A stretch of DNA of 63,979 bases, the filler included, from Basidioascus undulatus (taxonomy: Eukaryota), in NCBI GenBank assembly GCA_000826855.1. It is 3 parts of 3 records of this genome, joined end to end, with 100 filler letters (N's around TTAATTAATTAA, not from the genome) between each part and the next. Parts side by side here need not be neighbours in the genome. Positions count along the whole stretch, not along the records: positions 44,154 to 63,979 come from JTLS01000393.1; 2 more parts are not named here. One strand, written 5' to 3'. Shown one piece after another: positions 21,970-56,458 of this stretch. The first letter of the stretch is position 1; each line of letters starts with the position of its first letter. Both the position numbers and the translations under genes were made by a program. The notes below the pieces were generated by a model. It did not search any database. It had not been told where the DNA came from and worked only from the letters and a program-made list of their open reading frames with translations.

Positions 21970-21986
21970 AGATCGGAAGAGCACAC
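21970..21986 (+). other. Illumina TruSeq adapter remnant (artefact)
   Basis: AGATCGGAAGAGCACAC lies directly before the N run. Confidence 0.97.
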
Positions 21987-22086
21987 NNNNNNNNNNNNNN
22001 NNNNNNNNNNNNNNNNNNNNNNNNNNNNNNTTAATTAATTAANNNNNNNNNNNNNNNNNNNNNNNNNNNNNNNNNNNNNNNNNNNN
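21987..22086. other. Artificial contig linker N44-TTAATTAATTAA-N44
   Basis: A palindromic 12-mer with stops in all six frames is centred in Ns; an identical copy occurs at 44054. Confidence 0.97.
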
Positions 22087-44053: not shown

Positions 44054-44153
44054 NNNNNNNNNNNNNNNNNNNNNNNNNNNNNNNNNNNNNNNNNNNNTTA
44101 ATTAATTAANNNNNNNNNNNNNNNNNNNNNNNNNNNNNNNNNNNNNNNNNNNN
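44054..44153. other. Artificial contig linker N44-TTAATTAATTAA-N44
   Basis: Same structure as 21987-22086. Confidence 0.97.
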
Positions 44154-44357
44154 TCTGGGAGACGGGGGAGAAGAGGGAGGGGGACTCACGGGGCGGGGGA
44201 GTGGGTGGGATCGTTGAGTGTTCGAGGATGAAGTGGGAGGATCGATCGAGTGAGAGTGAGTGAGTAAAGGCATGCAAGCACGCGGCGGGGGAGTTGTGGG
44301 GTCGTTGCGGTGCAGGTTCGTGCGTATATACAAGGCTATGTTCGAGCCGGTACAGGA

Positions 44358-44784
44358 TCATGCGAGGGGACTGATAAGCCTGCAAACAAACCACCAGCAG
44401 TCAGCACGAGGTAGCCGTCAGGAAGGTTCGAAAGCGGAGGCGTCGAGCAGCCATACTTGATCAGGGAGGGCTGGGGAGAAGACCGCTGGAAGCTGCACCG
44501 CCAAACCCCCTCAGCACCATTCCCTTCCCTCTGAGACCAGGAAAGAAGAGACGCACCCGACGTAGATGACGAACGGGATCCAACCCCAGTGCACGACGGT
44601 CTGCGCACCCGTCCCGATGTCAGTTTGGGGAGAGCGAAAAGTGTCGAGGGAGCAAGGCACCTTGGCGACCTCGATGGTCTTGGAGATGCGCTCCTGTGCA
44701 CCAACCACCATATAATAAGCAGCACGCCCTCAAATCAAACGACGTATTCTCGCAGCGCACCTTGTTCTCCTCGCTGAAAGCCAT
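44358..44784 (-). CDS. TOM7: Mitochondrial outer-membrane translocase subunit Tom7, 5 short exons
   Basis: Spliced MAFSEENK|ERISKTIEVAK|TVVHWGWIPFVIYVG|FQRSSPQPSLIK|LISPLA*. Confidence 0.92.
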
Positions 44785-45003
44785 TTTCGCAGTGATGAGT
44801 GTGGAGCTGCAGGGCGACAAGCGGCGAAGGGTTCCCCACGAGCGCGGCCGAAAGGGCCATTTCTCGTGAGCCCGAAAGGCGCGTTTCCTTCGCGGACTGG
44901 GCGGTCTTCCTTTCCAGCTCGCTTGCTCGCCGCCCTGCCTTCCCCGTTGCACTCCTTGTCCTCCCCATCGCGCACGACGACCACGACAACGACGCCGGCC
45001 ACG

Positions 45004-45603
45004 ATGGACTCTTCCTCTGCTCTCACTACGCGCTTTTCCGCGCCTACGTCCGTCTCCGTCCCCCCAGCTTGAATAGTGCCCCCGTACCCTAGCGGGCAGC
45101 TGGTCGCATGCTCATCCCCCTTCTCTTTCCCTCACAGCCGGACGGTCCACGTCCACCCCGTCGTCCTCTTCTCCGTGCTGGACCACTACCTCCGTCGGCC
45201 CCTCGGGCAGGAGCGCGTGATCGGCGCGCTCCTCGGCACGCGCACCGACACCGACGTCGAGGTCCGCTCCTCGTTCGCCGTCCCCCACTCGGAGGGCGAG
45301 GAGCAGGCCACCGTCGACTCGGAGCACCTGCGCAGCATGCTCGAGCTCAGCGCAAAGGTCAACCCGAAGGAGGTCGTCGTGGGCTGGTGAGTCGGGGTGG
45401 CGCAAGGATGAATGAGGTAGGGATGGTCGGGACGGCTGACATGGTTTGCGGGCGGCCAGGTACGCCACCGGCCCCGCGCTCAACGCCTACTCCGCCCTCA
45501 TCCAAAACTTCTTCTCGCAAGAGACCGCCCCGCACCAAGCCATCCACCTCACCGTCGACACCTCCATCGCGGACGCCTCCCTCGGCGTGCGCGCCTACTC
45601 CAG
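45004..45603 (+). CDS. eIF3f: Translation initiation factor eIF3 subunit F (MPN domain), 5' part only
   Basis: VHVHPVVLFSVLDHYLRR..QERVIGALLG..VEVRSSFAVPHSE...KVNPKEVVVGW|YATGPALNAYSALIQNFFSQETAPHQAIHLTVDT. The C-terminal helical part is not found downstream. Confidence 0.9.
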
Positions 45604-45723
45604 GTACGCTCTCCCTACTTTTCCGCCTTCCTCCCCCCCCCTCAAACCTCCTTGCCTTCTTTCCCGTCTCCATTCTCTCGCTGGAGGATCACGCACCTGA
45701 CTGCGGATGAGCATGTGAATCAG

Positions 45724-46828
45724 ACTAGTCCACGTCTTTACCTCCTACTTCGGCGCACTCACGAGCCTCGTATGGTCGCCCGACGGGCGGTTCGTGCTCG
45801 TGCGTCTCGATCTTACTCGATCGGACACGACGGAAAGGTGCTGACTGATGGTTGGGCGAACAGACGGGCGGGCAAGACGAGTGCGTGCATGGCTTTGAGC
45901 AGACCGGAGCAGAGAGCGGAGGTGCTGATTTTGGGGCTGGGCACGCAGTCTGATCACCATATTCTCGCCGCGGGACGGACGCGTTGTAGCGCGATGCCAG
46001 GGGTGGGTCCCACTTTCCTTACAGTATCAGTGGGTCGTGGGAGTGAATGCTAACAGGAAGCGGAATGCAAATGGACAGCCACTCCTCATTCGTCACCGCC
46101 CTCGCGTTCGACCCCTGGCGCTCAGACGGGCGTACATACCGCTTCGGATCAGTAGGCGAAGACTGTCGGCTCATCCTCGTGCGTCCTCCCCCTGTCCTTC
46201 CCTCCTCTCTCCTCCTCCTTCTCCTCTTCCTCTTGCACCCAATTCCCCATTCATACCCATCTCCCCGGCAGTGGGACTTTTCCACCGCCGCCCTCAACCG
46301 GCCGAAGCACCTGCACCACCACCACTCGCACGGGCCCGGGCACGGACACCAGGCGGGAAAGCCGTCCCTCTCGTCCATCAGCCTCGGGCGCCGGCGGTCC
46401 GACTCGGGCATGGGCGCCGGCGCGGGGGACGCGGGCGAGCGCGCGGGGCAGGAGGCGCGCCCGGATGGGAGGCCGTGGCACTGGCATGATACGCCGACGA
46501 AGAGCGAGGTCGCAGTGCTGCAGCCTGTTATGGTCCGTCGGTTCCTCCTTCCTTCCTCCCCCTTCCCCTTCTTCCGGGATACTGAATACTGTGCTGTACT
46601 GGACGCCGACAGAACAAGCAAATAGGCTCCGACATCCTGACAGGCATCGCGTTCGTCGCCGAGGGGATCGTAGTGACCACCGCGACAGGCACGGCGAAGC
46701 TGTGGAAGCGCCCGCCTGCGGGTGTGGGGTCCGCGGGGTCTGGAGGACAGGGCAGGAGGCGCGCCGGCGCGTGGACCCAGGGGTGGGCGGCCGCGAGCAC
46801 GACGGGCGTGGGGGTTGGGGCGGGGTAG
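45724..46828 (+). CDS. creC: CreC/WDR20-like WD40 protein, 3' part only
   Basis: [82 protein letters not shown]...GEAVEA region read as KLWKRP. No N-terminal half upstream. Confidence 0.88.
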
Positions 46829-46898
46829 ATGACGGGCGGGATGAGGAGGAGGGGAGAGGAGAGGGGAGAGAGGGGCAGAGGGGGCAGGCAGTGTTGTA

Positions 46899-46927
46899 TT
46901 GAGTGTTGAGTGTTGAGTGTTGAGTGT
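46899..46927. repeat. (TTGAGTG)x4 short tandem repeat
   Basis: Directly visible just 3' of the CreC stop. Confidence 0.9.
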
Positions 46928-52363: not shown

Positions 52364-55300
52364 ATGACCGCGCCGGCCGCGACTGCAGCTCCCTCGATCA
52401 TCTCCACGACCGCGGCTACGACCGCGGTCAACTCGCCTGCTCCGTCGACGCCTCCGACTGAGGTGTCCAAGAAGGGAAAGGAGGGGAGCGAGGAGGGCGA
52501 CGGTGGCGCGGAGGACGGCAAGGATTGCGGGGACAATGAGGACGAGGTGGCGGAGATCGTGAACCCGTTTGCGAACGATGTGAGTAGCATGCCGTTCCCT
52601 GGATAGCGCGTGGCTAATACTCTGCAAATGCAGAACATGGACGATAAGCTCGCACGCCTTCACCACCTGCTCTCCAAGTCGACGATCTATGCGAAGGTAC
52701 GCTCGTCTCACTCAACTTCACGCCATAGGGCTTACAGATCGCTTGTTACAGATCATCGGCGACAAGATGGAGCAGCAGCGCCAGACGTCGACAGCTTCCG
52801 AAGAGGTCGCCCGAAAGAAGGAGGAGGCCAGGCGCGCCCGCGAAGAGAAGAAGGAGAAGCCTCGCGCGACGGCGCGCAAGAGCTCGCGCGCGGCTGGGAC
52901 GAGCAAGGAGGAGAAGGGGGAGGACGCGGCGGCGGCGGGAGATAAGCGCAAGAGGCGGGGTGAGGCGAAGAAGAAATTTGAGGAGGCAGAGGAGGAGAGC
53001 GAAGATGGCAGCGGCGCAGAGGACGAGGAGGTGAGTGAGCGATACTCAACCCCATTTCCCATAGCGGGACGGCTGAAACAGGAAGCCTTTGCCGCAGGCC
53101 CGCTCCCCGAAGCGCGCCCGCGCTGCGAGCCCCGCCGCAGACATCTTCGAGAACCAGTCTCCGCTCGTCACAGGCGCAAAGCTGAAAGATTACCAGGCGC
53201 GGCTGCCTTCTGGCCATCACGCCAGTGAATCCCAGTATTGTGCTGACGCTGGCCACTCCCGCAGCGTGCCGGAGTAGCATGGCTGCAGTCTCTCGACATG
53301 AACGGCCTCTCGGGGATCCTCGCCGACGAGATGGGCCTCGGCAAGACGCTGCAGACTATCGCTTTCCTCGCTTCCCTCATGGACACCGGCAGCACCGGCC
53401 CGTTCCTCATCGTCTGCCCCCTTTCTGTGCTGCATGTGAGCGCGGCTTCTGCCGCCCATTTCCGGAAGATAGCTGACGCTCTTGACGCTGCGGCAGAACT
53501 GGATATCCGAGTTCGAGAAGTGCGAATCCTTCTGCATCTATCTACCCTTGCACACAAACTCGGTTGACTCACATCGCGCATGCACAGATTTACGCCGACC
53601 CTCAAACCGATCATGTACCACGGCCCGCCCCCGCACCGCGCCGAGCTCCGAACCGAGATGCGCGGGCGCGGGTTCTTCGGTGGCGCCCCCACCCGCGGGA
53701 AGGGCAAGGGCCGGAAGGCCGCGCCGGCGACCACGGAGCCTCGGATCCTGGTAACGACGTATGAGATGTGGTGCGTCTGGTGTAAAAGTTGCACGGCATC
53801 GAAGTTGCATTGACATGGCGAACGGGCCGAGCAGCATCAAGGACCGCTCGCAGCTCTCGCAAGTTCAGTGGCGGTACATCGTCGTCGACGAGGGGCACAG
53901 GCTGAAGAACTTCAACTCGAAGTGAGAAGGCGACTCTTGTTGCGGGCGTTTGAGATGCGGCTGACGCTTCGGGGTTGGTGCAGGCTCATCAAGGAGCTCA
54001 AGACGTACAGCTCCGCTAACCGGCTGATCTTGACGGGCACCCCGCTTCACGTAGGTCTAGGACTGGCGAACCGCAGTCACTGTTTTCCACTGATTTTCGA
54101 GGCAACCAGAACAACCTCGCCGAGCTCTGGTCGCTTCTGAACTTCATTCTCCCGCAACTGTTCGACGTCCGTCATCGCACTCGCATGGCTCCTGATTATT
54201 TCAGCTGACTGGGTACTGTTCCAACAGGACCTCGACGCGTTTCAGCAATGGTTCAACTTCACGGACCTGCACTCATCCGACCCGAACGCGAAGCCCGCCA
54301 TCTCCACGGATGAGACGGCCTCGCTGGTCTTGAAGCTGCACGAGATCCTGCGGCCGTTCCTCCTGCGTCGGCTGAAGGTCGACGTCGAGCACGGCCTGCC
54401 GCCAAAGAAGGAGTACATGCTGTACGCGCCGCTCACGCCGCGCCAGAAGGCGCTCTACGACGCGATCGTCAACCGCAACCTGCGCGAGACGCTCGTGCAC
54501 ATGAAGATGGCTGCGGAGGGGCAGGAGCCCGCGGTCGCGCGCGCGAAGGAGACGGGGGAGGACAGTGAGGAGGAGGTGGGTGCGCCGAGGAGGAAGGCGA
54601 GGAGTAGGAAAGGGAAGGGGAGGAAGAGCTACGTCGAGACGGACGATCTGGCGGACGATCGGAAGGACGATGATGCGTTTGAGGAGATGATTAGGAGGGA
54701 GGACGTGGTGGACGAGCACCGAGAGGCTGAGGAGGAGGTGGCGCGTGCTTACGCCCTGAAGAAAGCCAGTGCGTCGACGCATTCCCTCTTCTTTTTTTTT
54801 CTTCGCTGGACCTGACGACGGTATCACTGACCGGTCTGCTCTATACTCGCAGATCAAGCTGTCGGGAACATGAAGCTGCAAAACATTGTCATGCAGCTTC
54901 GCAAGGTGTGCTCGCACCCGTACCTGTTCGACTGGCCTCGAGACGAAAGCGGTGCGTATCGCCTCTCGCTCTCTCATGCTACCGCGCGCTGAACCGCGTT
55001 ACTGCAGGTCTCGAAGTGATCAACGAAAGCAGGTGTATTCCCGTTCTGCTGCCCTCGGCCTGTACCGGCTGACACATGCGTCGGTGCCTTCGCCTCCTTG
55101 CAGACCTCATCAACGCCTCTGGCAAGATGCTTCTCCTCAACCGGCTCCTCGACGCCCTTTTCGCGCGGGGGCACAAAGTGCTTGTGTTCTCGCAGTTCGT
55201 GACCATGTTGAACATCATCGAAGGTGTGCTTCCTCTTCCAGTTTCACCTCCTATGCTGCCCTCGCGACTCGAAATCCTGATCGTGGCGTTTGGGACTCAG

Positions 55301-56458
55301 ACTGGGCGACCGAGTACAAGGGCTGGACCGTCTGCCGCATCGACGGTTCGACCAGCCAGGACGACCGCCGCACGCAGATGAAGGCGTTCAACGAGGGCGG
55401 CAACGACGAGGACGCGCCGAAGCTGTTCTTGCTCAGCACTCGTGCAGGTGGTCTCGGCAGTACGTCTTTCTATCTCTTTGGAAGCGTGTCGGCAACTTGA
55501 ACTGACAGCGGGTCGGAACGGCGCGCAGTCAACCTCGTCGCTGCGGACACCGTCATTTTCTTCGACAGTGACTGGGTGCGTGCCCACGTGTTACTTTGAA
55601 TGTAGGTGTACGCTAACGCGTCTTCCACAGAACCCTCAAGTACGATTTCAGTCCCCGATCACCAAGAAAGCGGGTCGCTGACTCGAAGCACGCTGCAGAT
55701 GGATTTGCAGGCTCAAGATCGCGCTCACCGCATCGGTCAAACTAAGCCAGTCTGTATGTCTTCTGCGGTTTGTATGTCTACGAGAGCCCCGGTATTGACT
55801 TCTCTTCTCGCGCAGTGGTTTACCGGTGAGTTTCCCGTGTCCACCTTCGTCTTCCTTCGCCTGATTTCAATTTCGCTGCCACAGTCTTGCTACGCAGCAC
55901 ACCGTTGAGACGCGCATCATGCAGGTGAGCTCTTTCCGCCTTTGTTGCGTTGAAGAAAGAGTAATAACCAAGCTTGTTCAACAGCGTGCGAATGCAAAGC
56001 GGAAACTTGAGTCGCTTGTCATCGCTCAAGGCACGCCGCATCAGTCCGCCGGCGGTCTGAACGTTTTGCTGACGAAGTCATGCGAGCAGGTGCCTTCAAG
56101 ACGCATGGCATGCCCACGGTACCGGGCAAGCCGAAGAAGACATCGCTCGCCGACATGGCGGAGGCCCTGCGCGAGCTCGAGGGCGCCGAGATCAAACTTG
56201 CCGGCTCGGGCGACCAGATCATCAGCGACGAAGAGCTTGAGGTCCTGCTAGACCGTTCGCCCGAGGCGATGGAGCGCCGCAAGGGCTGGACGACGACCGC
56301 TCGCGGTGGTGCCGCGGGCGGCGGTGTCGGAGAGGTGGTGGAGATGGATAAAGATGAGGTGAATATTTCGACTGGGCTTTTGAACACTCGAAGACACTGA
56401 TTTACATTTTCGTTTACAGGTCAGCGAGGGGCTGGCGAGGATGATGGGCGACGAGTAG
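52364..56458 (+). CDS. SNF2-family chromatin remodeller, LSH/HELLS/Irc5/DDM1 subfamily
   Basis: [106 protein letters not shown]. Confidence 0.9.

Follow-up and report, generated by a model that had tools for sequence, protein, structure and literature searches.

Organization of the locus

The window, i.e. the whole stretch of 63,979 nucleotides from Basidioascus undulatus that was analyzed, harbors on its plus strand an apparent fusion of two genes. The 5' half of a gene for eIF3f (coding sequence 45004-45603) is followed by an apparent "intron" of 120 nt (45604-45723) and by the 3' third of a gene for CreC (45724-46828), and the reading frame is open across the junction. Exon 3 of the eIF3f-like gene terminates with GCC TAC TCC AG at position 45603 and is directly followed by GTACGC. 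The apparent intron consists to 69% of C or T (83 of 120 nt), contains a run of nine C at 45633-45641 as well as a CTGAC motif at 45697-45701, and ends with CAG at 45721-45723. The exon on the CreC side starts with A CTA GTC CAC GTC TTT ACC TCC TAC TTC GGC, so that the terminal AG of the one exon and the leading A of the other (AG+A) keep the frame. The exon end, the CT-rich 120-nt intron, the poly-C run, CTGAC and CAG had all been described in the sequence-only reading and are present at these positions, and the in-frame splice without an N gap that it had claimed is likewise borne out by the sequence, as no N is found within 45004-46828.

An identical 100-nt block of the composition N44-TTAATTAATTAA-N44 occurs twice in the window, at 21987-22086 and again at 44054-44153, without assigned strand; the contig that carries the apparent fusion starts immediately behind the second block at 44154. 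Relevant passages of two sources describe six-frame stop spacers that have TTAATTAATTAA at their core and are employed for concatenating contigs or scaffolds into a pseudomolecule (PMC3019230; bioRxiv 10.1101/2023.02.08.527609). An assignment of the N runs as ordinary scaffold gaps was rejected on account of the six-frame stop linker inside them. With two linker blocks the window comprises at least three separate contigs, and adjacency across 21987-22086 or 44054-44153 is meaningless. The eIF3f start codon is located only 850 nt downstream of the latter contig boundary. The last letters of the first contig, directly preceding the linker, are AGATCGGAAGAGCACAC (21970-21986), which we take to be Illumina adapter sequence, i.e. 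untrimmed read-through. Its 13-letter core occurs once in the window, where 0.09 matches would be expected, and at least once in 8 out of 100 shuffled sequences. Stop linkers and an adapter-like contig end characterize the window as a rough draft assembly.

Public contig sets covering the locus

Public sequencing runs were sought for the stretch 44900-46900, and 11 contig records from three runs, coded X1, X2 and X3, were aligned to it. X1 (2025) and X2 (2014) originate from different studies and comprise about 35 Mb of contigs each, X3 from the same sample as X1. X1 as well as X2 carry a flag as a possible source of the DNA in the window; although they do not represent independent isolates, they are what a test for an assembly error calls for. 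They match the window at 99% or more on each side of the join described below. Sampled 31-mers of the stretch are present at a fraction of 0.99 in X1, 0.98 in X2 and 0.50 in X3; that the former two values fall short of 1.00 fits the absence of junction words and is weak evidence for it. Matching of X1 and X2 stops at 46839 and 46843-46900 is not covered, this being a repeat or low-complexity stretch that is skipped in the comparison and from which no conclusion is drawn.

X3 is labelled 'DNA?'. All six joints found in its contigs are flanked by GT..AG, while X1 and X2 contain no joints, and X3 was therefore treated as RNA- or cDNA-derived. Logan contigs omit rare variants and some records have been filtered out; the lack of a contig across a given position is thus no proof that no read bridges it.

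The eIF3f gene

The eIF3f part is covered by a spliced contig of 1,119 nt (X3 record 10), which matches the window at 44912-45047, 45138-45385/6 and 45459/60-45603 and then continues for 590 nt outside of it. The transcript thus represented starts at or before 44912. Coding exon 1 (45004-45047) begins with the ATG read at 45004 and is followed by intron 1 (45048-45137), which is skipped in the contig and bounded by GT..AG. Exon 2 (45138-45386) encodes the MPN/JAB domain; its translation matches Pfam family PF01398 with an E-value of 1.3e-19 and 70.6 bits (cut-off 22.5). Intron 2 occupies 45387-45459, and exon 3 (45460-45603) terminates in phase 2 (AG) at the very position where the contig leaves the window. 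In X1 record 1 and X2 record 6, exon 3 is contiguous with the first 22 nt of the true eIF3f intron 3 (45604-45625, donor GTACGC).

A word-seeded search yielded 43 proteins at E <= 1e-10 among 251 candidates, with a best identity of 72%. Those named by their source are called eIF3f, Mov34/MPN or similar, and the ones of about 300 amino acids bear PF01398 together with PF13012. Identity amounts to 66-72% with four basidiomycete eIF3f proteins and to 55% with a fifth one, P0013. When five full-length eIF3f proteins were employed as tblastn queries, matches were confined to 45082-45622 and correspond to the query up to residue ~158 of ~300 in four of them and to residues 274-415 of 541 in P0001. 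No further match at E <= 1e-3 was detected in the whole window with these five queries and the four CreC queries described below. The absence of the rest of eIF3f from the window, as asserted in the sequence-only reading, was thus corroborated by tblastn, while its second assertion, that the first half of CreC is missing, has to be revised to a loss of about two thirds.

The spliced contig indicates where the eIF3f gene continues. The 30 letters shown of its 590-nt extension align to the family; manual translation in the frame of the window exons gives S-A-P-L-G-P-T-P-K-P directly after exon 3. This peptide aligns without gaps to P0002, which reads ...SSPIGIFPKPEN / ...AYVSSPIGIFPKPEN at this position, with P, G and PKP being conserved, and P0004, P0007 and P0013 are similar to P0002 there. 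The truncation of eIF3f in the window is a loss in the assembly and not a property of the gene.

Upstream of eIF3f and in divergent orientation, a gene of the TOM7 family (PF08038, E 1.1e-10) occupies 44514-44790 on the minus strand; it contains introns and its product begins with MAFSEENK at about 44790.

The CreC gene

CreC of A. nidulans is a WD40 protein of the WDR20 type that binds and stabilizes the CreB/USP12-46 deubiquitinase. The corresponding part of the window is covered by a second spliced contig of 1,669 nt (X3 record 11). Its first 973 nt, upstream of 45723, are without counterpart in the window, whereupon it follows six exons of the plus strand (45724-45799, 45864-45880, 45949-46002, 46079-46178, 46272-46532 and from 46613 onward). 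The first of these (45724-45799; contig positions 974-1050) encodes a WD40 repeat and is matched in tblastn by CreC homologues, and its translation gives a sub-threshold WD40 match in Pfam (E 0.013, 16.4 bits, cut-off 27). The second one (45864-45880) is a micro-exon of 17 nt, recognized from 17 letters lying between 45799 and 45949 in the contig and from its AG/GT flanks, with neighboring introns of 64 nt and 68 nt. It is followed by an exon at 45949-46002, an exon with the AFDPW... motif found in homologues named CreC (46079-46178), a His/Gly-rich exon of low complexity (46272-46532) and the last exon (46613-46828), of which the contig covers 46612-46799 and whose stop codon TAG at 46826-46828 was read from the sequence. 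In the Pfam search of six exon translations, the four others besides eIF3f exon 2 and the first CreC exon gave no match at all.

The family assignment is based on a search that returned 259 proteins at E <= 1e-5 among 1,518 candidates, many of them named creC. Four full-length CreC proteins employed as tblastn queries matched the window within 45722-46598 only, and the matches start at residue 380 of 590 (Coprinopsis), 552 of 842 (Ustilago hordei), 431 of 659 and 407 of 650, respectively. In all four cases the part present in the window is collinear with the C-terminus of the homologue. No protein from this organism was among the matches of the close-homologue searches for either eIF3f or CreC.

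As for eIF3f, the missing portion of the gene is represented in the spliced contig. Translated by hand, the sequence preceding the first exon in the window reads L-R-M-V-D-T-F-S-E-R, the first base of the Arg codon at the exon boundary being provided by the contig. It aligns without gaps to P0148 (LRIADLNSER-LLDTFESYFGG) and P0045 (LRVIDALAEQ-LVDCYASYFGA), where the hyphen separates this segment from the residues that follow.

The intron at 46179-46271 is 93 nt long, i.e. a multiple of three, and contains no in-frame stop, so that an open reading frame (46047-46625) reads through it and its retention would leave the frame open. Behind the CreC stop codon, 46840-46927 is occupied by a GA-rich low-complexity tract and, after it, four tandem copies of TGAGTGT (46900-46927). 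An SNF2-related helicase is encoded on the plus strand in adjacent pieces of open reading frame at 54141-55497 (PF00176, E 6.8e-13; Helicase_C, E 3.9e-05), about 7 kb downstream. Neither this helicase nor the TOM7 neighbor has a bearing on the question of the fusion.

The join site

Contigs approaching from the two sides overlap in a single 13-nt string, CCTTCCTCCCCCC, at 45626-45638. Both introns, that of eIF3f and that of CreC, contain this string, which occurs once in the window. On the eIF3f side, X1 record 1 (9,396 nt) matches 44900-45638 and then continues for 3,847 nt with sequence unlike the window, beginning with TCCCACTCC..., and the match of X2 record 6 (509 nt) ends at 45627 with nothing beyond. 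On the CreC side, X1 record 2 (15,247 nt) matches 45626-46839 without a single difference and carries 7,519 nt of different sequence in front of this match, and X2 record 8 (7,556 nt) matches from 45626, preceded by 151 other nucleotides; both are contiguous over 45626-46839. The mean depths of the contigs on the two sides are 47.9 and 38.1 in X1 and 10 and 18.1 in X2; being means per contig, they were not counted as evidence.

The 30 letters preceding 45626 are the same in X1 record 2 and X2 record 8 and read ACGTTTTCGGAGC, G, GTGCGTCTTGGGTCTT. They begin with the 13 letters that terminate the preceding CreC exon in the RNA-like contig, followed by a G and by an intron start GTGCGT.... In the DNA, the end of this exon and its GT donor thus lie directly before 45626, and 16 nt together with 45626-45723 make up a true CreC intron of about 114 nt. 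Its 3' part (45639-45723), with CTGAC at 45697-45701 and the acceptor CAG at 45721-45723, is contained in X1 record 2 and X2 record 8. The 120-nt length of the apparent intron had been put forward as a sign of a mis-join; next to a reconstructed true CreC intron of about 114 nt it loses this meaning and was rejected as a mark of a chimera.

None of the 11 aligned records from the three runs bridges the join when at least 31 letters are required on both sides. Each side is separately confirmed, and alternative neighbors of both sides exist in X1 as well as in X2. The sequence-only reading had named the missing halves, if located on other contigs, as evidence of an assembly chimera; in substance they were so located, for eIF3f beyond 45603/45638 and for CreC before 45626/45723. 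In X3, another exon than that of the window follows 45603 and another one precedes 45723/4, and the splice joint 45603 -> 45724 is absent from the listed joints of this set, from whose contigs rare isoforms could escape. Both parental continuations are therefore present in the DNA contigs (X1, X2) and in the RNA-like contigs (X3). Gap-free continuation in DNA and transcripts, seen as 30-letter ends and as record lengths, implies that both genes are intact in the same material.

These data bear directly on the reading in which a real deletion has left the fusion as the sole copy of both genes in the strain. The sequence of the window itself speaks for it. It is contradicted by the alternative continuations in the DNA contigs of both samples and by the two normal transcripts in the spliced contigs of sample S1. 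Furthermore, an eIF3f devoid of its C-terminal half would probably be unable to sustain translation initiation. We regard this reading as extremely improbable.

Origin of the apparent fusion

We conclude, with a probability of about 93%, that the contig starting at 44154 is a chimera of two loci produced by a false join and that the fusion is not a biological feature. The sequence-only reading had already considered a mis-join across the low-complexity intron, as at least as likely as a real fusion, and it is this proposal that the independent contigs favor, diverging at 45626-45638 as they do. Its other proposal, a real fusion by deletion or intron recombination, finds no support in the 11 records, those of X3 with its normally spliced transcripts included, and neither does the functional hint of an MPN domain meeting the partner of a deubiquitinase. 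Almost certainly the organism possesses eIF3f and CreC as separate genes, each complete and normally spliced, and no fusion protein is made.

According to the proposed mechanism, about 1.5 kb from 44154 on, comprising the TOM7-family gene, the eIF3f promoter, exons 1-3 and 22-35 nt of intron 3, would represent one locus. The sequence from 45626 on, with the last ~98 nt of the CreC intron, the last six CreC exons and the DNA downstream, would represent another. During assembly, gap closing or overlap detection the two may have been joined at the 13-nt CT/poly-C string that occurs in both introns. The resulting chimeric intron would owe its donor and 22-35 nt to eIF3f intron 3 and its branch point and acceptor to the CreC intron. 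Because both introns happen to be of phase 2, a coincidence with a chance of 1 in 3, the frame is kept across the false GT...AG 'intron'. The false join probably arose because contigs ended, or coverage was low, at the poly-C tract and either a chimeric read or a spurious overlap of short length connected the two sides. In the low-coverage set of 2014 (X2), contigs end near the tract on both sides, at 45627 and 151 nt before 45626, respectively.

A variant of the artifact would have eIF3f and CreC as neighbors on one chromosome, with the DNA between the two introns collapsed or dropped in a falsely closed gap. The shared orientation of the two genes is in line with this, as is the ending of X2 record 6 at 45627 and the start of X2 record 8 only 151 nt before 45626. 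X1 records 1 and 2, in turn, cover 3,847 and 7,519 nt of the missing DNA and are separate contigs nonetheless, so that at least ~11 kb would have been dropped if the loci are linked. We regard this variant as less likely than not.

A different explanation is a real extra chimeric copy present beside the intact genes, be it as a deletion haplotype in a diploid or dikaryotic nucleus, as a pseudogene derived from a segmental duplication or as a minor subclone. Such a copy would arise by microhomology-mediated recombination of the two CT-rich introns, and an MPN-WD40 fusion might be expressed from it. The location of the join at a 13-nt microhomology is reminiscent of real microhomology-mediated deletions, GT, CTGAC and CAG are all found in the chimeric intron, across which the frame is maintained, eIF3f and CreC lie in the same orientation, and contigs show presence rather than absence. 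Against a false join in general speaks that an assembler did output this sequence, for which one or more reads or overlaps may exist. Opposed to an extra copy are X1 records 1 and 2, which cross the site for kilobases without a fork where, judging by the expected behavior of an assembler, an additional copy should have left one; the lack of a bridging record in both DNA sets and of a 45603 -> 45724 joint in X3; and the draft quality of the assembly, which offers a simpler cause. Taken together, an extra copy is improbable, and marginally less probable still is its more specific form, a low-frequency or one-haplotype allele, originating from an intron-to-intron deletion or duplication and encoding an in-frame fusion beside the intact genes, that happened to be picked by the assembler.

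The main value of recognizing the false join lies in quality control. Any gene caller applied to this contig would predict a plausible in-frame MPN-WD40 "fusion protein", and from the same contig eIF3f and CreC would be reported as truncated or missing. The false fusion model could then enter protein databases and comparisons of domain architecture. Clean GT-AG boundaries and a kept frame do not count as evidence of a real fusion, as a random join of phase-2 introns looks identical. If true, the fusion would be a neat case of exon shuffling by intron recombination; the evidence is against it.

Comparison with known systems

In eIF3 subunit f an MPN/JAB domain (PF01398) is combined with a MitMem_reg domain (PF13012), and exons 1-3 of the window likewise encode the MPN domain. 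Contrary to full-length eIF3f, everything past residue ~158 is missing from the window, the PF13012 part included. On the other side of the join, the C-terminal WD40 repeats and the AFDPW... motif match proteins named creC by their source, in accordance with CreC of Aspergillus nidulans and WDR20, whereas compared to full CreC only about the last third is present.

An eIF3f MPN domain sharing one model with an unrelated domain is also found in Wallemia. P0001 (541 amino acids) and P0014 (492 amino acids) carry PF01398 and PF13012 together with the pirin domains PF02678 and PF05726. These models may represent a real fusion or neighboring genes merged in the annotation. They differ from the case described here in being annotated proteins of other genomes and in having a different partner, namely pirin.

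The case is furthermore similar to the chimeric contigs of draft assemblies from short reads, in which a mis-join has taken place at a low-complexity microhomology. As in such cases, the two sides are confirmed separately, they overlap only in a 13-nt CT/poly-C string and their continuations differ, and linkers and an adapter-like contig end are likewise encountered here. Unlike the usual mis-join, this one falls into two phase-2 introns of genes on the same strand and thereby mimics clean in-frame exon shuffling.
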